The notes under the pieces were generated by a model, which saw only the letters and a program-made list of their open reading frames with translations, ran no database searches and had not been told where the DNA came from. A stretch of 18,599 nt of DNA from a virus (taxonomy: Duplodnaviria > Heunggongvirae > Uroviricota > Caudoviricetes), in IMG/VR virus record IMGVR_UViG_2547132252_000005, positions 1 through 18,599 of that record. The stretch is one strand, 5' to 3'. The position numbers were made by a program, and so were the translations under genes. Shown piece after piece: positions 1 to 6,762 of the stretch (position 1 is the first letter of the stretch; each line of letters begins with the position of its first letter).

Positions 1-154
1 TTGGCGACGATCACAATGCGATGAACTGCGCATCGCTGGCATCACCTTTAAATGCCGTCTGGCGAAGAGTGGTGATCAGTTCCTGTGGGTCGACAGAATC
101 CATGCCGACACGTTCAGCCAGCTTCCCTGCCAGCGTTGCGAGTGCTGTACTCAT
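1..154 (-). pseudogene. bet: bet (Red-beta single-strand annealing protein), 5' end; frame closes after codon 47 and the gene runs off the window
   Basis: Minus-strand ATG at 152-154 translates MSTALATLAGKLAERVGMDSVDPQELITTLRQTAFKGDASDAQFIAL then TGA at 11-13. This matches my recollection of the lambda Bet N-terminus, which continues ...FIALLIVANQYG; the -1 frame here reads IVAN, consistent with a 1-bp deletion. Below the 60-aa ORF-track threshold. Confidence 0.6.
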
Positions 155-159
155 CCGTT

Positions 160-456
160 TTATACCTCTGAATCAATATCAACCTGGTGGTGAGCAATGG
201 TTTCAACCATGTACCGGATGTGTTCTGCCATGCGCTCCTGAAACTCAACATCGTCATCAAACGCACGGGTAATGGCTTTTTTGCTGGCCCCGTGGCGTTG
301 CAAATGATCGATGCAGAGTGATTCAAACAGGTGCTGTGGAAGACCTTTTTCCATGTCGTCTGCCAGTTCTGCCTCTTTCTCTTCACGGGCAATCTGCTGG
401 TAATGACGCGCCCAGCTCTGAGCCTCAAGACGATCCTGAATGTAATAAGCGTTCAT
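160..456 (-). CDS. gam: Gam (RecBCD inhibitor), short GamS-length form
   Basis: The 98-aa [24 protein letters not shown]...HQVDIDSEV is near-identical to the lambda Gam short form as I recall it. Its stop lies 5 bp before the bet start, as in lambda. Confidence 0.9.
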
Positions 457-531
457 GGCTGAACTCCTGAAAATGGCTGTGAATATATCGCCCGCGAAAT
501 GCCGGGCTGATTAGGTAAACAGGAAAGGGGA

Positions 532-942
532 TTAGTGATTCAGGCCGTTGCCGCGTCCGTCGAGAAAAACTTCCACGAGCAAATCACGGGTATAAGTGCG
601 CTCGATGCCGCGATGCAGATAAAGCCGTCCGCGTAAATTAGCTGATGCAGTCCAGGTACCATCTTTGTGTTTGACCAGCATTCCTGGCATGACCGCACCG
701 CGATTAACGGTCTGCGTTCCGTAATGTTGATGAACCATAAAAACTCCTGCCCGTAAGCTGGGCTGCTGAACATATAGAGACTTCTGCGCGTATTCAGGCG
801 GTGGATGGCCGCCGGTTGTCATAACTAAGCCGCCTCGTTGAAGCGACTGAGGTATGAGGTGTTGAGTTGATTTCAGCTGGTCACACCGACGTTCACGCGT
901 CCGCTTCACCCCTCGCACTTCCCGGAGCCTGCTGAAATTCAA
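532..942 (-). CDS. Hypothetical protein immediately downstream of the OL/pL-like region; Arg-rich N-terminus ([15 protein letters not shown]) loosely resembling an N-type ARM; start codon uncertain
   Basis: 136-aa ORF with a TTG start in the track, same frame as gam. An internal ATG with an upstream GGAG would give a 68-aa product. An overlapping 77-aa ORF (540..773) in another frame cannot be excluded as the real gene. Confidence 0.3.
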
Positions 943-959
943 GCTGCGGATCTAAGCGG

Positions 960-1100
960 TCATCGCAACGGTGAATCAGGTGGTTGCCGTATCGTTGTGT
1001 TGTTGCGATGAATTTATTTAAAACTATAGTTGTTTTGTCGTCAACAACAAAAGTTGTTTTATTGGTTTTTTTAGATGTAAATGGTTGTATTTAGGATGGA
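960..1100 (-). promoter_or_regulatory. Candidate OL/pL operator-promoter region
   Basis: Cluster of GGTTGTT / AACAAC half-sites, including AGTTGTT-n8-AACAACA at about 1028..1049, with the same architecture as the OR palindrome at 3447..3471. The position matches lambda OL, between the rex-equivalent cassette and the leftward early genes. Confidence 0.45.
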
Positions 1101-1184
1101 TTTATTTTGTGACTTGCATCGCATAGCGATAACTGAAGCGAGGTCGTGGTGGTTTTTTGAATGGTTTGTGTGATGAGGGGGAGG

Positions 1185-1214
1185 GGCAAAAGAAAACCCG
1201 GCACGGTGGCCGGG
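1185..1214 (-). terminator. Intrinsic terminator ending the cI-cassette transcript
   Basis: Stem CCCGGC (1197-1202) / GCCGGG (1209-1214) with loop ACGGTG. On the minus strand it is followed by TTTTCTTTT (plus 1188-1196), directly after the stop of the 125-aa gene. Confidence 0.55.
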
Positions 1215-1218
1215 ATTC

Positions 1219-1596
1219 TTACGCAGGTAGGTAAAGATATGATTGTGGTGGCTTAATATTACTACCTAGAGCAGAGATAGGAATTGGTTCTTTATATCTT
1301 TCCACTTCACCAATTTTTATTGCGTAGGCCTTTTCTCTACCTGAATAATATGAGTCATAAAATTGCTTAGAAATACCTGCGTGTTTTTCCGTCTTTTTCC
1401 AAAGAGATTCCGGTTCGTCACTTAGTATTGATTCAATACGGAATTGACCAACAACTTTACCTAATGGCATCGTGGCATAAATAACAACGGTGCTAATTTG
1501 CGGATTTTTGAATATACCTTTACGAAACTCGAACCGCTTTGTTCCGTTCAATATTTTTTCTGCAAACTCAGGCTTAATGGATAATAAAACTTTCAT
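1219..1596 (-). CDS. ASCH-domain (PUA-like fold) protein, 125 aa; distal gene of the cI-linked cassette
   Basis: N-terminus MKVLLSIKPEFAEKILNGTKRFEFRK carries the ASCH hallmark (G-x-K-x-x-E-x-R after the first strand). A TEKHA motif resembles E. coli YqfB as I recall it. Its start overlaps the upstream gene by 23 nt; the region is AT-rich. Confidence 0.7.
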   Translation of the reverse strand: MKVLLSIKPEFAEKILNGTKRFEFRKGIFKNPQISTVVIYATMPLGKVVGQFRIESILSDEPESLWKKTEKHAGISKQFYDSYYSGREKAYAIKIGEVERYKEPIPISALGSNIKPPQSYLYLPA

Positions 1597-2647
1597 TTAT
1601 CTTGCCTAACTCGATGATCTTTAAGAACTGCTCATTTGTGAGTTTAAAGTGACTCCATCGGAATGCACGCGAACCATTTAGCCCCACATGATCTATTAAA
1701 ATAGCACGATTGGGTCTCTTTGGCAAAGACAGATTGTATGTGAATCTTATAATGAAAGGGTATCGACGTTCTTTATAGATTTTTCTGAGTTCATCTTCAG
1801 AAAATACGCTAAAACGAATACAATAGTCTACAAAACTATCTTCGCTTAAAAATTCAGAAATATTTTTTACGCTCTCAACTACACATAATGTACTGGCTAC
1901 AGAACGATAGCGAGCTGGCCCTTTTTTGTCTCCGGTTCTATAGATGACAATGATATCTCCTCTTTTCATTCCCATCACAGAACGCATTCCACATATGTAA
2001 ATTTTATGAATGCTGTTAGCATGGGATATATCTTTGACAATATCTGGTGATTCATTTACAAGTTTTGAATCAGGGAATAGTCTAGTGTGATATTCGGGAT
2101 AAATCGCCAGTAAATATTTGTTGGCTCTTGATGTCATTATTCGAGGGTAATCTAATAAAATATCACCATAAGGCTCATGCAAAGACCTCGCATATACAAA
2201 CTCTTTCCCGTTATGTGTTTCTTTTTCACCATGAATGTAAAATCCGTACGTTTGGAAAAGTTTTATTAGATGGACGTGTTTGTCGAAAACAGTAACATAA
2301 ATATCATCAGATTTTGATGAAAATGCATGGTCAAACGCTTTTTTTAGAAATCGTTGTCCGCGAAGGGTGCCTTTAGATTCAAATTTGAATGTTCCTATCT
2401 TTAGATGACGTCCTGGTGGGAGCGCTGGATTAATGTCATTTGCATCATCATTTTCTTTTAGATACATAAAACCTTCGATTTTATGCTTGTCATCATAGAG
2501 CACATAAGCTGATTCTCCTTCTCTGGCTTTTTTTTCTAACCAAAGAGGAAACTCTTTATAATCTTTTTTTAAAGAGTCAAAAAATGGGTCATTGTGATCA
2601 AAATCAGAGAATTTCTCATATTTTAAAGTATCCATTAAGTTCTCCAT
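1574..2647 (-). CDS. 357-aa protein with a GNAT-like N-terminal region (about residues 30-150) and a C-terminal domain of unknown function; proximal gene of the cI-linked cassette
   Basis: Long uninterrupted AT-rich ORF 68 bp downstream of the cI stop on the same strand. GNAT-like pattern: LKIGTFKF, then RGQRF (motif-A-like), then LIKLFQTYGFY. The C-terminal half (IYICGMRSVMGMKRGDIIVIYRTGD...) matches nothing I can name. Fold calls are from reading the sequence, not a profile search. Confidence 0.7.
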   Translation of the reverse strand: MENLMDTLKYEKFSDFDHNDPFFDSLKKDYKEFPLWLEKKAREGESAYVLYDDKHKIEGFMYLKENDDANDINPALPPGRHLKIGTFKFESKGTLRGQRFLKKAFDHAFSSKSDDIYVTVFDKHVHLIKLFQTYGFYIHGEKETHNGKEFVYARSLHEPYGDILLDYPRIMTSRANKYLLAIYPEYHTRLFPDSKLVNESPDIVKDISHANSIHKIYICGMRSVMGMKRGDIIVIYRTGDKKGPARYRSVASTLCVVESVKNISEFLSEDSFVDYCIRFSVFSEDELRKIYKERRYPFIIRFTYNLSLPKRPNRAILIDHVGLNGSRAFRWSHFKLTNEQFLKIIELGKINESFIIH

Positions 2648-2715
2648 TCTAAAATGAATAATTAAGTTGTTTTACTGAATGAGCACAATGCCCGGTTGAT
2701 AATTTTTAATTGGTA

Positions 2716-3405
2716 CTATCCATGCTTCCTATACGTCTGCGGCATGCTCCCAATAACTTTCCCGAAGATAAACACCCGGTTCATCTCGTCTTTCTCGATT
2801 GGGTCCCACGGTGAGTAGCTCTTGTTATCAGAGATAACCAGCAGTTTATCCTTCATCATTTGCAGGCGCTTTACATGGGCTGTGTCGTCGTACAGAAACG
2901 CATAGATACCATCACCGTCGAAAGATTTAACCGTGATATCAACGAACAGCAGATCACCAGGTTCAATCGTTCCTGACATGCTGTCACCGCGTACGTTAAT
3001 GATGCGGATATTTTCTGCCTTCCTGCCATCGAACATGTGACGAGCATCGTCAAACGAGTACTCAACCGAGCGTAGGACTTCTACAAACTCACGGTTGATG
3101 ACACCCGGCCCGGCACTCACTTCTATATCAAGAACGTCAATCTTAAAGTATTTGGAATGGCTGACAGTTGGTTGTATTGGTTGCACTGTACTGTCTGACA
3201 TATTTCCAACGCCAGAAGATAACCATTCTGCGCGCACACCCAAAGCGTTCGCGATCTCCACGATTTTAGTTGTTTGATTAGCTTTCCCTGTTTCGATTTT
3301 CTGAATAGCAGCTTGGCTAACCCCGACCAAATCCCCAAGCGCCTTTTGTGTAAGGCCTCGCGCTAATCTGGCTTCTTTAAGTCTTTCTGAGAGTGTTGTT
3401 TTCAT
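2716..3405 (-). CDS. cI: CI-type prophage repressor (N-terminal HTH, C-terminal LexA/S24 autopeptidase domain)
   Basis: 229 aa. N-terminal HTH (LTQKALGDLVGVSQAAIQKIETGK), a GDSM serine motif and a downstream KRL lysine typical of S24 self-cleaving repressors. Divergent from a cro-like gene across an operator region. Confidence 0.88.
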   Translation of the reverse strand: MKTTLSERLKEARLARGLTQKALGDLVGVSQAAIQKIETGKANQTTKIVEIANALGVRAEWLSSGVGNMSDSTVQPIQPTVSHSKYFKIDVLDIEVSAGPGVINREFVEVLRSVEYSFDDARHMFDGRKAENIRIINVRGDSMSGTIEPGDLLFVDITVKSFDGDGIYAFLYDDTAHVKRLQMMKDKLLVISDNKSYSPWDPIEKDEMNRVFIFGKVIGSMPQTYRKHG

Positions 3406-3509
3406 AGTTCAAATGTACAACCAAGGTTTTATTCCATCAAACGAAAATGGTTGTTGACTAAAAACAACCATAGTTTTAATCTTGATTCAAATTAACCACG
3501 GAGGTTGTT
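3406..3509. promoter_or_regulatory. OR region with divergent pRM/pR promoters and operator palindromes
   Basis: Near-perfect 25-bp palindrome ATGGTTGTTgactaaaAACAACCAT (3447..3471) enclosing TTGACT (3454-3459), with a TAATCT -10 candidate near 3477-3482. Further half-sites ACAACCA (about 3416-3422) and GGTTGTT (3503-3509). GGAGG sits 5 nt before the cro ATG; no SD before cI, suggesting a leaderless cI mRNA as in lambda. Confidence 0.6.
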
Positions 3510-3740
3510 ATGAACCCAGCTATTAAAACAGCGATCAATATCGTTGGTTCACAAAAGAAACTGGGCGCTGCTTGCGAAGTTTCACAGCAGGCCGTCTATA
3601 AGTGGCTTCACAACAAAGCAAAGGTATCCCCTGAACATGTCGGCAGCATTGTTACGGCTACTGGTGGAGTAGTGAAGGCACACCAGATTCGCCCGGATCT
3701 TCCGAAGTTGTTTCCACACACCGAAAAGAACGCAGCTTAA
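3510..3740 (+). CDS. cro: Cro-like HTH regulator (YdaS-like)
   Basis: 76 aa, first rightward gene at OR, with an HTH (KKLGAACEVSQQAVYKWLH) and a good RBS. Confidence 0.8.
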   Translation: MNPAIKTAINIVGSQKKLGAACEVSQQAVYKWLHNKAKVSPEHVGSIVTATGGVVKAHQIRPDLPKLFPHTEKNAA

Positions 3741-3809
3741 ATTTCCATTTCACGCTCTTTAACAATAAGCAATCAACTTAACAGTCAATTCAAACTAAAG
3801 GAGTCAATT

Positions 3810-4349
3810 ATGCAACCACTTACATACCAACAGACTAGCGGATTTAGCCCGACTGCGGTGATAAATCGTTCTCAAACAAAACAGGTGCCAGGCCACGAAA
3901 AAATCCGTGATGCCGTCCGCGCCTGGTCGGCTGAAGATAATCAGGATGTCGTTGCCACACTCATTGTGAATGAGTATCGGGAGCAGGGCGGCGGCACCAT
4001 CGATTTCCCTGATGATGTCAGCCGTGCACGCCAGAAGCTGTTCCGCTTCCTCGATAACAAATTCGATTCTGAAAAATACCGAAATAACGTGCGTGAACTG
4101 ACCCCGGCAATTCTGGCGGTACTACCGCTGGAATATCGCGGTTACCTGGTTGAGCAGGATAGCTTTATGGCTAGGTTGGCTGAAATGGAAAAGGAACTCA
4201 GTGAGGCAAAACAGGCTGTCATTCTCAACGCACCACGCCACCAGAAACTGAAGGAAATTAGTGAAGGTATTGTGTCGATGTTTCGTGTGGACCCAGATCT
4301 GGCTGGTCCACTGATGGCGATGGTCACCACCATGCTGGGGGCAATATGA
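3810..4349 (+). CDS. YdaT-family protein (CII-like regulator of Rac-type immunity regions)
   Basis: 179 aa. Motifs NEYREQGGGTIDFPDD and LTPAILAVLPLEYR parallel E. coli YdaT (EEYLRQGGGELPLVPG ... LIPAILAILPRELR) as I recall it. Sits in the cII position after cro. Confidence 0.7.
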   Translation: MQPLTYQQTSGFSPTAVINRSQTKQVPGHEKIRDAVRAWSAEDNQDVVATLIVNEYREQGGGTIDFPDDVSRARQKLFRFLDNKFDSEKYRNNVRELTPAILAVLPLEYRGYLVEQDSFMARLAEMEKELSEAKQAVILNAPRHQKLKEISEGIVSMFRVDPDLAGPLMAMVTTMLGAI

Positions 4350-5365
4350 CAGGTTCAGAAATGGCGAAAGCCGGTCTGCTGGAACAGAACCGACTTTCAG
4401 GTGCAAATCGTAACGCACTCATTGCGGGAGGAATTATGGCAAACACTGCTGAGATATTCAATTTTCCAGTGCCGGATGTGGCACAAAAGGAGCCGCGCGT
4501 GGCAGATCTCGATGATGGTTATACGCGCATTGCAAATGAGTTGCTGGAAGCTGTGATGCTGGCCGGATTAACACAGCACCAGCTTCTGGTCTTCCTGGCT
4601 GTCATGCGCAAAACATATGGCTTTAATAAAAAACTGGATTGGGTGAGCAACGAGCAACTTTCCGAATTGACCGGGATATTGCCGCACAAGTGTTCTGCTG
4701 CAAAAAGCGTTCTGGTAAAGCGTGGGATTCTTATTCAGAGCGGGCGGAATACCGGCATTAATAATGTGGTCAGTGAATGGTCAACATTACCCGAATCAGG
4801 TAAGAAAAATAAAGTTTACCTGAAAGAGGTAAATTTACCTGAATCAGGTAAAAAAAGTTTACCCAAATCAGGTAAAGACGTTTACCCGAATCAGGTAAAC
4901 ACAAAAGACAAAATAACAAAAGACAATATAAAACCTTATTCGTCCGAGAATTCTGGCGAATCCTCTGACCAGCCAGAAAACGACCTTCCTGTGGTGAAAC
5001 CGGATGCTGCGATTCAGAGCGGCAGCAAGTGGGGGACAGCAGAAGACCTGACCGCCGCAGAGTGGATGTTTGACATGGTGAAGACCATCGCGCCATCAGC
5101 CAGAAAACCGAATTTTGCAGGGTGGGCTAACGATATCCGCCTGATGCGTGAACGTGACGGACGTAACCACCGCGACATGTGCGTGCTGTTCCGCTGGGCA
5201 TGCCAGGACAACTTCTGGTCCGGTAACGTGCTAAGTCCGGCCAAACTCCGTGACAAGTGGACCCAACTCGAAATCAACCGTAACAAGCAACAGGCTGGAG
5301 TGACAGCCGGAAAATCAAAACTGGACCTGACAAACACTGACTGGATTTATGGGGTGGATTTATGA
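4346..5365 (+). CDS. O: Replication initiator O (lambdoid O-family); start codon ambiguous (4346, 4361 or the MANTAEIF Met)
   Basis: The N-terminal region (YTRIANELLEAVMLAGLTQHQLLVFLAVMRKTYGFNKK) resembles the lambda O DNA-binding domain. The gene contains the iteron array and is followed by a lambda-P homolog. Its ATG overlaps the upstream stop (ATATGA). Confidence 0.8.
   Translation: MTGSEMAKAGLLEQNRLSGANRNALIAGGIMANTAEIFNFPVPDVAQKEPRVADLDDGYTRIANELLEAVMLAGLTQHQLLVFLAVMRKTYGFNKKLDWVSNEQLSELTGILPHKCSAAKSVLVKRGILIQSGRNTGINNVVSEWSTLPESGKKNKVYLKEVNLPESGKKSLPKSGKDVYPNQVNTKDKITKDNIKPYSSENSGESSDQPENDLPVVKPDAAIQSGSKWGTAEDLTAAEWMFDMVKTIAPSARKPNFAGWANDIRLMRERDGRNHRDMCVLFRWACQDNFWSGNVLSPAKLRDKWTQLEINRNKQQAGVTAGKSKLDLTNTDWIYGVDL
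4787..4898. repeat. Replication origin: five direct 17-bp iterons (TTACCYRAATCAGGTAA type) inside O
   Basis: Iterons at about 4787, 4816, 4835, 4859 and 4882, each with internal dyad symmetry (TTACC...GGTAA), followed by an A+T-rich stretch (4899..4935). The layout is that of lambda ori within O. Confidence 0.75.
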
Positions 5366-6063
5366 AAAACATCGCCGCACAAATGGTTAACTTTGACTGT
5401 GAGCAGATGCGCCGGATCGCCAACAACATGCCGGAACAGTACGACGAAAAGCCACAGGTACAGCAGGTAGCGCAGATCATCAACGGTGTGTTCAGGCAGT
5501 TACTGGCAACTTTCCCGGCGAGCCTGGCTAACCGTGACCAGAATGAACTGAACGAAATCCGCCGCCAGTGGGTTCTGGCTTTCCGGGAAAACGGGATCAC
5601 CACAATGGAACAGGTTAACGCAGGAATGCGCGTAGCCCGTCGGCAGAATCGACCATTCCTGCCATCACCCGGGCAGTTTGTGGCCTGGTGCCGGGAAGAA
5701 GCATCCGTTAACGCCGGGCTGCCAAACGTCAGCGAGCTGGTTGATATGGTTTACGAGTATTGCCGGAAGCGTGGCCTGTATCCGGATGCAGAGTCTTATC
5801 CGTGGAAATCGAACGCGCATTACTGGTTGGTTACCAACTTGTACCAGAACATGCGGGCCAATGCGCTGACTGACGCGGAATTACGGCGCAAGGCTGCCGA
5901 TGAACTGACCTGTATGACAGCGCGAATTAACCGTGGTGAGACGATACCTGAACCAGTAAAACAACTTCCTGTTATGGGCGGTAGACCTCTAAATCGTGCA
6001 CAGGCTCTGGCGAAGATCGCAGAAATTAAAGCTAAGTTCGGACTGAAAGGAGCAAGTGTATGA
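5362..6063 (+). CDS. P: Replication protein P (DnaB helicase loader)
   Basis: 233 aa, essentially collinear with lambda P as I recall it (MKNIAAQMVNFD...AKFGLKGASV). Start overlaps the O stop. Confidence 0.92.
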   Translation: MKNIAAQMVNFDCEQMRRIANNMPEQYDEKPQVQQVAQIINGVFRQLLATFPASLANRDQNELNEIRRQWVLAFRENGITTMEQVNAGMRVARRQNRPFLPSPGQFVAWCREEASVNAGLPNVSELVDMVYEYCRKRGLYPDAESYPWKSNAHYWLVTNLYQNMRANALTDAELRRKAADELTCMTARINRGETIPEPVKQLPVMGGRPLNRAQALAKIAEIKAKFGLKGASV

Positions 6064-6362
6064 CGGGCAAAGAGGCAATTATTCATTACCTGGGGACGCA
6101 TAAGAGCTTCTGTGCACAGGACGTTGCCGCGGTAACAGGCGCAACCGTAACCAGCATAAATCAGGCTGCGGCTAAAATGGCGCGGGCAGGAATCCTGGTC
6201 GTTGATGGTAAGGTCTGGCGAACGGTGTATTACCGGTTCGCTACCAGAGAAGAACGGGAAGGAAAGGTGAGCACGAATCTGATTTTTAAGGAGTGTCGCC
6301 AGAGTGCCGCGATGAAACGGGTATTGAGGGTATATAAAAGAACATCAATGGGTACACAATGA
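6060..6362 (+). CDS. ren: Ren protein
   Basis: 100 aa; MTGKEAIIHYLGTH...VWRTVYYRFATREEREGK matches lambda Ren from memory. Overlaps the P stop. Confidence 0.88.
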   Translation: MTGKEAIIHYLGTHKSFCAQDVAAVTGATVTSINQAAAKMARAGILVVDGKVWRTVYYRFATREEREGKVSTNLIFKECRQSAAMKRVLRVYKRTSMGTQ

Positions 6363-6429
6363 TGAAACAGGTGAGTTGAGTTCAAACTGTAGTACAATTC
6401 TCTCCAGTTTGAACAGGAAAGAATATTCT

Positions 6430-6762
6430 ATGAACCCTTATATTTATCTTGGTGGTGCAATACTTGCAGAGGTCATTGGTACAACCTTAATGAAGTTTTC
6501 AGAAGGTTTTACACGGTTATGGCCATCTGTTGGTACAATTATTTGTTATTGTGCATCATTCTGGTTATTAGCTCAGACGCTGGCTTATATTCCTACAGGG
6601 ATTGCTTATGCTATCTGGTCAGGAGTCGGTATTGTCCTGATTAGCTTACTGTCATGGGGACTTTTCGGCCAACGGCTGGACCTGCCAGCCATTATAGGCA
6701 TGATGTTGATTTGTGCCGGTGTGTTGGTTATTAATTTATTGTCACGAAGCACACCACATTAA
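6430..6762 (+). CDS. emrE: EmrE small multidrug resistance (SMR) efflux transporter, 110 aa
   Basis: MNPYIYLGGAILAEVIGTTLMKFSEGF...LSRSTPH is near-identical to E. coli EmrE as I recall it. AGGAAAG RBS before the ATG at 6430. The track's 6376 start is an upstream in-frame extension. Confidence 0.92.
   Translation: MNPYIYLGGAILAEVIGTTLMKFSEGFTRLWPSVGTIICYCASFWLLAQTLAYIPTGIAYAIWSGVGIVLISLLSWGLFGQRLDLPAIIGMMLICAGVLVINLLSRSTPH

Follow-up and report, generated by a model that had tools for sequence, protein, structure and literature searches.

The two genes that follow the cI-type repressor gene in the viral record IMGVR_UViG_2547132252_000005 (positions 1 to 18,599, referred to below in its entirety as the window) are, by their sequences, the already catalogued and named GevTA cassette, which is listed as PDC-M11 in the PADLOC database. 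The finding thus re-identifies a known system and adds no new one. The first gene, gevT, encodes a predicted acetyltransferase of the GNAT fold with a C-terminal PUA-like domain, and the second, gevA, encodes a small stand-alone ASCH protein. The reading favoured here, with a probability of roughly 0.6, is that the pair would act as a lysogen-expressed module of the toxin-antitoxin (TA) type that causes abortive infection or exclusion of other phages.

The assignment to PDC-M11 covers both proteins at full length. GevT matches the PADLOC-DB v2 model PDC-M11A (PDLC04419) with an expectation value of 2.1e-133, residues 6-356 aligning to positions 10-356 of a 357-position profile, and GevA matches PDC-M11B (PDLC04425) at 6.8e-52; PDC-M11 is the sole match for the two proteins in this database. 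At the nucleotide level, positions 1100-3500 of the window show 100% identity with Escherichia phage IdasGreatGrand and 99.9% identity with PhiR47_2 (GenBank PV340567.1). The corresponding PhiR47_2 proteins are 100% identical to the window pair and are labelled 'GevT toxin' and 'GevA antitoxin', with 'Gev' evidently standing for GNAT-EVE. A full-text literature search for GevT, GevA, GevTA, GNAT-EVE and PDC-M11 found no experimental paper and, because no publication using the names was found, the two labels are treated as depositor annotation only. An earlier sequence-only reading of the window had presented the pair as a candidate undescribed module belonging to no named system, and this part of it falls, given the full-length PDC-M11A and PDC-M11B matches, the identical named proteins in PV340567.1 and a published description of the operon (PMC7641849). 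Its view that the contents do not resemble RexAB was right, as PADLOC gives PDC-M11 only and the PADLOC and Pfam scans return PDC-M11, ASCH and GNAT-type matches. The profile and structure searches that it had suggested as a check resolve GevT into GNAT and PUA-like parts and GevA into an ASCH protein, both belonging to PDC-M11.

The published description is that of Bell, Wolf and Koonin (2020), in whose analysis EVE domains joined to a GNAT-like domain formed a cluster of their own, in which a PIN domain frequently stands at the N-terminus (PMC7641849). According to these authors, an ASCH gene is present in 'almost all' GNAT-EVE operons, frequently along with one for an AAA_17 ATPase, and the GNAT-EVE and ASCH operon was predicted to be a TA system. 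GNAT-EVE proteins without PIN are commonly found inside beta- and gamma-proteobacterial prophages, and PIN-GNAT-EVE proteins are associated with restriction-modification (RM) systems of type I; none of these modules had been characterised experimentally as of 2020 (PMC7641849). The first description is credited there to Iyer et al. (2013). The PDC systems are 145 untested 'phage defence candidates' that were collected on the principle of guilt-by-embedding in BREX, DISARM and type I RM loci (bioRxiv 10.1101/2024.01.29.577857). The window copy agrees with GevTA/PDC-M11 in its full-length matches, domain architecture, gene order and prophage location. It is a short form, with no PIN or TIR domain and no AAA_17 gene, and otherwise nothing sets it apart.

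Homologues of GevT are numerous. A word-index search returned 1631 clusters at 90% identity, mostly called 'N-acetyltransferase' (an NCBI family name), and a hidden Markov model scan of 1.84 billion representatives yielded 361 GevT clusters at E<=1e-30, with lengths near 350, 500 and 620 residues. For the survey of gene order, 80 loci were taken from contigs at one genome per species; 79 of these are complete, and the overlap was measured in the 74 with both genes on the same strand. The loci, at 45-74% identity, come from Proteobacteria, Bacteroidota, Firmicutes, Acidobacteriota, Verrucomicrobiota, Campylobacterota and other phyla. An ASCH partner is present in every complete locus (79/79), and in 75 it lies directly downstream on the same strand. 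The two reading frames of the window pair overlap by 23 nt (1574..1596, minus strand, ...AAATGAAAGTTTTATTATCCATTAA), so that the 3' end of gevT and the 5' end of gevA are dual-coding, and exactly the same overlap is found in 70 of the 74 same-strand loci. It also recurs in the Lactobacillus prophage Lj965, the Salmonella phage SopEPhi, the archaeal virus psiM100 and a TIR-fused variant. Because so many loci from so many phyla share it, the overlap is not a product of chance. The earlier suggestion of translational coupling is supported.

The surroundings of the pair are far more varied. Among 150 immediate neighbours, AAA_17 genes (8), integrases (5), S24/HTH repressors (3-4), SIR2, Fic, holins and further types were counted. 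As the neighbours are this heterogeneous, GevTA is best described from the survey as a self-contained mobile cassette, with adjacency to cI being specific to the enterobacterial lambdoids. Adjacency to a repressor was considered as a general trait of the family and was set aside, since outside enterobacterial lambdoids only 3-4 of the 150 neighbours are S24/HTH repressors; the cI-adjacent context that had been suggested as a point to survey in homologues is therefore seen in all 275 E. coli carriers (see below) and is not general beyond the enterobacterial lambdoids. Other phages likewise hold the pair at accessory sites: the P2-like SopEPhi has it after the replication genes and next to the portal gene, between the two, and in Lj965 it is situated ahead of terminase, directly after four tRNA genes (Ser, Glu, Tyr and Phe; L085:3307-5402). 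The proximity of this tRNA cluster may be coincidence or may hint at a tRNA-directed activity.

The longer homologues combine the same core with additional domains. The GevT forms of about 500 residues carry an N-terminal PIN domain. One further form, P0145 (L099:280-2251), carries an N-terminal ThsB-like TIR domain (PADLOC ThsB, 7.5e-53) ahead of a GevT portion that is 48% identical to the window protein over all 352 residues; an ASCH gene comes next, again with the 23-nt overlap. This form is known from a single 2.4-kb contig. In P0209 (L100:769-2667) the PIN, GNAT, EVE and ASCH domains form a single polypeptide, with PDC-M11A matching residues 1-498 and PDC-M11B residues 510-631. This protein occurs on three contigs beside NERD and TnpV genes, and no separate ASCH gene follows it. 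In the forms of about 620 residues the N-terminal addition is a different ASCH domain, and a small downstream gene is still present, as in P0236 (L102:3001-5234), which has the order ASCH-PIN-GNAT-EVE. The long forms thus share the GNAT-EVE core, the ASCH partner and the 23-nt overlap with the window pair, but add PIN or ThsB-like TIR domains and in some cases a fused ASCH domain at either end, none of which is present in the window copy. The PIN and TIR fusions are the best indirect evidence for a role in immunity, and the existence of toxin and antitoxin as one polypeptide shows that the two proteins act together, either physically or on the same ligand.

GevT itself has no above-threshold match in Pfam. 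Over the N-terminal 150 residues there is a match to an acetyltransferase PHROG and a weak one to GNATs of the PaiA and PseH type, and a profile built from 30 GevT sequences finds PaiA (1tiq) at 4e-5 as the best of several weak matches. A confident AlphaFold2 model computed from the homologue alignment (predicted local distance difference test score, pLDDT, 87.8; predicted template modelling score, pTM, 0.85) places an N-terminal GNAT fold before a C-terminal PUA-like domain of the EVE/ASCH superfamily. A Foldseek comparison of this model with the PDB gave GNAT matches only, the nearest solved relatives being PaiA and N-terminal acetyltransferases. The near-invariant residues include G93, R95 and K98 of the cofactor loop, Y130-G131-F132 and E145, and the C-terminal domain has further positions with no or almost no variation, among them Y232, R233, N207, S208 and K211. 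GevT would accordingly be expected to function as an acetyl-CoA-dependent acetyltransferase, and the PUA-like domain suggests a nucleic-acid target, most plausibly RNA or tRNA. A growth-arresting effector role is suggested by the annotation, by the precedent of GNAT toxins and by the fact that the short form has no second catalytic domain.

The similarity to PaiA raises the alternative of a metabolic or host-fitness moron, in which GevT would acetylate a small molecule such as a polyamine or an antibiotic, would be accompanied by an RNA-binding partner and would have nothing to do with phage conflict. The best GNAT sequence matches are indeed spermidine/spermine acetyltransferases of the PaiA type, and the NCBI name is N-acetyltransferase. 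These matches are weak, however, with 4e-5 the best among them, and a fused PUA-like domain together with an obligate ASCH partner speaks for nucleic acid instead. Nor does such a function fit a cassette that has moved between phyla, where it is found at 45-50% identity, and that has TIR- and PIN-fused relatives; this explanation is regarded as very improbable.

GevA (1219..1596, minus strand; 125 residues) belongs to the ZmASCH type. It matches the Pfam ASCH family at 2.5e-8 and aligns over its full length with the ZmASCH structures (PDB 5guq and 5gus) at 8e-16; ZmASCH in turn matches PDC-M11B at 3e-29. Residues G18, K20, E23, R25, Y40, P117, Q118 and S119 are invariant among 79 GevA homologues. 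ZmASCH, from Zymomonas mobilis, is a ribonuclease that binds single-stranded RNA and depends on Mg2+, and its cleft is lined by Tyr47, Lys53, Ser128 and a GxKxxxxR motif (PMC5615036). Tyr47, Ser128 and the GxKxxxxR motif have invariant equivalents in GevA, which shares the fold and the cleft motif of ZmASCH (5GUQ); ribonuclease activity on single-stranded RNA is known from ZmASCH itself. From the conserved GNAT, C-terminal and cleft residues, both GevT and GevA look like active proteins directed at nucleic acid. A detectable paralogous relationship between GevA and the C-terminal domain of GevT was considered and rejected, as hhalign gave a probability of 28% over 33 columns and a global run gave nothing.

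ZmASCH is the sole close homologue of GevA that has been studied biochemically. The possibility that it is the partner of a Zymomonas GevT was dismissed, as its upstream neighbour of 375 residues is unrelated and has no Pfam or PADLOC match (L090:3825-5447). Orphan GevA-like ASCH genes, with no gevT beside them (for instance L094:2992-3369), occur in about 20 temperate phages, usually just upstream of terminase. They include S. pyogenes 315.4, phiNIH1.1, the Javan phages, Oenococcus phages and the archaeal psiM2 (NC_001902, 2925-3263). In psiM100, the ASCH gene is preceded by the 'inserted fragment IFa', which contains most of the GevT-like ORFD. The orphan genes could be remnants of the cassette or anti-Gev antitoxins.

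Within the window, GevTA fills the lambdoid cargo slot from cI to tIMM/PL, at the end of a putative lysogenic operon on the minus strand. The first gene of this operon (2716..3405) encodes a cI-type repressor with a helix-turn-helix (HTH) domain and an S24 peptidase domain (Pfam Peptidase_S24, 1e-18; HTH_3, 5e-13), which is named cI in PhiR47_2. The gevT open reading frame (1574..2647) follows after a spacer of 68 nt (2648..2715), measured from the cI stop to the first ATG. This spacer has no terminator- or promoter-like site on the minus strand, and it folds no better than shuffled sequences (z = 0.44). The full frame encodes 357 residues, but the true start is probably the second ATG at 2635, 80 nt from the cI stop, which gives a protein of 353 residues: a GGAG lies 8 nt upstream of it, and the PHROG profile, the PGAP annotation and the database homologues all start there. 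A promoter scan of the cassette found fewer sites than in shuffled sequence and none in the cI-gevT spacer, and Rfam gave no non-coding RNA match in positions 1-12900. Co-transcription of cI, gevT and gevA from PRM or PRE in lysogens is therefore likely from their position and from the absence of a terminator in the spacer.

The operon is closed by an intrinsic terminator (1187..1214, minus strand), detected by a terminator scan and by folding, in which the hairpin CCCGGC-CACCGT-GCCGGG is followed by a T run (1214..1187; -15.2 kcal/mol, z = -3.1). A PL/OL-like promoter-operator is located about 150 nt beyond it (~1003..1050, minus strand). This element is a near copy of the PR/OR promoter-operator in the cI-cro interval (3447..3480, plus strand; palindrome ATGGTTGTTGACTAAAAACAACCAT), ahead of cro, which starts at 3510. 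The two elements read TTGTTGTTGACGACAAAACAACTATAGTTTTAAAT and, at 3447-3480, TGGTTGTTGACTAAAAACAACCATAGTTTTAATCT, and share the pattern GTTGTTGAC.A.AAAACAAC.ATAGTTTTAA. The GC content is 0.33-0.39 over gevT and gevA, compared with about 0.45-0.52 in the flanks. Most of what the sequence-only reading had said of this arrangement is upheld by these results: two co-oriented genes of 357 and 125 codons lie 68 nt after cI, on its strand and with no terminator between, as in lambda cI-rexA-rexB; the terminator lies just before OL, since a PR/OR-like element is found some 150 nt past it; and the proposed horizontal acquisition of the low-GC pair is supported.

The position in the cI operon bears on another alternative, in which the pair serves the phage by modifying nucleic acid, as an anti-restriction device or an epigenetic mark. 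GevT would then acetylate a DNA or RNA base that its EVE-like domain recognises, and GevA would read or regulate the mark, with the result that the phage is protected or host restriction is altered. Acetylation of bases was proposed by Iyer et al. (2013), to the extent that their work is summarised in PMC7641849, where it is also suggested that prophage GNAT-EVE proteins may shield phages from host RM and where PUA-like, EVE and ASCH domains are described as binding modified bases. The invariant cleft of GevA counts in favour of this role. However, the pair is situated in the lysogenic cI operon and not in an early lytic operon, where protection of the genome would be needed, GevT is called a toxin by its depositors, and fusions to TIR and PIN domains typically mark effectors of host immunity. 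This alternative is considered distinctly unlikely.

The distribution of the cassette in E. coli shows how the slot behaves. A single chromosomal copy with at least 99% identity is present in 275 of 5426 complete E. coli genomes (5%), including O157:H7 EC4115, O55:H7, ST131 and the uropathogenic strain (UPEC) 536. All 275 carriers have it in the interval from the PL flank to a cI-type repressor gene, and at least two immunity alleles are represented. Prophages with the same flanks and other cargo lose homology to the window exactly at two points, the cI stop (2711-2717) and the terminator (1214/1215). Their slots contain a lipoprotein gene, three hypothetical genes, a Panacea-domain protein with a hypothetical protein, or a hypothetical protein with a DUF3037 protein, so that the slot is, as had been proposed, a cargo position whose contents differ between sibling prophages. 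Loci of such siblings are L096:763-1616, L097:790-2414, L088:2620-3000 and L089:2628-4150. Because these prophages remain homologous up to 1214/1215, the terminator is assigned, on alignment, to the phage backbone and not to the GevTA cassette. The 'empty' version of the slot is a deletion scar, from which window positions 1295-2670 have been lost between TAAA.AAC microhomologies. What remains in the scar is the 3'-terminal ~76 nt of gevA together with 45 nt following cI (1215-1294 joined to 2671-2716; L098:770-885), and a probe spanning the junction detects it in 758 of 5426 complete E. coli genomes (14%). Since the cargo varies between shared breakpoints at the cI stop and the terminator, the comparison indicates that the slot is a genuine exchange hotspot equivalent to that of lambda rexAB, and one from which GevTA is often lost.

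Such losses are relevant to the possibility that GevTA is an addiction module, which stabilises the prophage or its immunity region and gives no protection against other phages. The genes are a TA-like pair with strict co-occurrence, annotated as toxin and antitoxin, and they adjoin the repressor gene, so that loss of the prophage would remove both. Nevertheless, the 758 genomes have a clean deletion of the cassette in a prophage region that is otherwise kept, and its loss is thus tolerated. The TIR and PIN fusions and the embedding of relatives in RM, BREX and DISARM loci point to immunity, and the cassette occupies moron positions in unrelated types of phage. Addiction therefore seems an unlikely explanation.

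Of the two proteins of the phage lambda RexAB system, RexB is a membrane protein of the ion-channel type, and RexA is its activator. GevTA has the slot and the logic of lambda RexAB, namely two genes 3' of cI, on the same strand, presumably transcribed from PRM and closed by a terminator before PL/OL, but GevT and GevA have no sequence or domain relationship to the Rex proteins and resemble soluble enzymes. With the type II TA systems that pair a GNAT toxin with a ribbon-helix-helix (RHH) antitoxin, such as TacAT, AtaRT, KacAT and ItaRT, GevTA shares a predicted toxin of the GNAT fold and a small partner. In those systems, however, the RHH/DUF1778 antitoxin is encoded upstream, whereas gevT is preceded by cI and its partner, an ASCH protein, is encoded downstream; the GNAT/RHH toxins also consist of a single domain, while GevT has the additional PUA-like domain. 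Acetylation of aminoacyl-tRNA provides a precedent for toxicity in the GNAT family.

The favoured reading, that GevTA is a TA-type abortive-infection or exclusion module, can be set out as follows. In a lysogen, gevT and gevA would be transcribed together with cI from PRM, and translational coupling would hold the two proteins in a fixed ratio. The PUA-like domain of GevT would steer the acetyltransferase to a nucleic-acid ligand, of which RNA or tRNA is the most plausible, and growth would stop unless GevA kept GevT harmless. It could achieve this through binding to GevT, through occupation or processing of the ligand that GevT uses, or through reversal of the modification. A second phage infecting the lysogen would upset the balance between GevT and GevA, and the resulting abortive infection would protect the lysogen population and the prophage within it. 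The seeding of the PDC-M11 models from genes that lie inside BREX, DISARM or type I RM systems supports this reading. Among the possible routes for GevA, action on the same ligand or product is favoured over simple sequestration by a labile antitoxin, in view of the invariant cleft and the natural fusions.

Several observations weigh against this reading. No experimental report on toxicity, neutralisation or phage plating was found in the literature, the toxin and antitoxin labels are the depositors' own, the PDC systems are explicitly untested (bioRxiv 10.1101/2024.01.29.577857) and the GNAT-EVE modules were uncharacterised when they were described (PMC7641849). The GNAT domain of GevT has no specific similarity to toxins of the TacT/AtaT type. 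Both the gene order, with the toxin first, and the strict conservation of GevA's cleft are unusual for a labile type II antitoxin, and the fusion of the two proteins into one polypeptide argues against simple proteolytic release. Finally, the deletion of the cassette in 758 E. coli genomes indicates that it is dispensable and perhaps costly.

Some of these observations would be accommodated if GevTA were instead a TA system of writer, reader and eraser. GevT would acetylate a base or an aminoacyl group on RNA or tRNA, the substrate being held by its PUA-like domain, and GevA, instead of sequestering the toxin, would be an enzymatic antitoxin, an amidohydrolase or RNase of the ASCH fold, that continuously removes or destroys the product, until infection tips this futile cycle. 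ASCH enzymes of the YqfB type hydrolyse N4-acetylcytidine. The invariant cleft of GevA, the conserved coupling and the single-polypeptide fusions, all of which are awkward for a labile sequestering antitoxin, fit such a scheme, which is considered improbable.

The cassette is common, being present in 5% of complete E. coli genomes, with a further 14% scarred by its loss, and extending across bacterial phyla and to an archaeal virus. If the target of a GNAT tethered to a domain of the modified-base-reader type, and the role of its ASCH partner, were resolved, a new toxin chemistry in phage defence would be defined, and the contribution that the slot in the lambdoid immunity region makes to lysogens would be explained.

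Several other features of the window were recorded. The gene in the cII position (3810-4349, named cII in PhiR47_2) encodes a protein with the Pfam domain YdaT_toxin (9.5e-30). Between ren and ninB (6376-10367) there is a DLP12-like block with an SMR transporter resembling emrE, a large serine recombinase resembling ybcK, a PEBP-family protein and an AraC-type regulator, none of which has a PADLOC match; PhiR47_2 differs here and has a hypothetical gene of 347 codons on the reverse strand. Downstream of the Q antiterminator (12057-13567), genes for tRNA-Met(CAT), tRNA-Arg(TCG) and tRNA-Arg(TCT) are followed by the small RNAs STnc100 and AgvB (anti-GcvB). This tRNA block is found after Q in Stx-type prophages of enterohaemorrhagic E. 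coli. Two overlapping open reading frames at 13715-15044, which carry DUF1737 and a partial SASA (sialate O-acetylesterase) domain, look like a split or frameshifted esterase gene of the nanS-p type. An IS3-family element (17352-18565), with HTH_Tnp_1 and rve reading frames and an ALIL frameshift pseudoknot at 17633-17749, directly follows the holin and lysozyme genes, where Rz and Rz1 would be expected.

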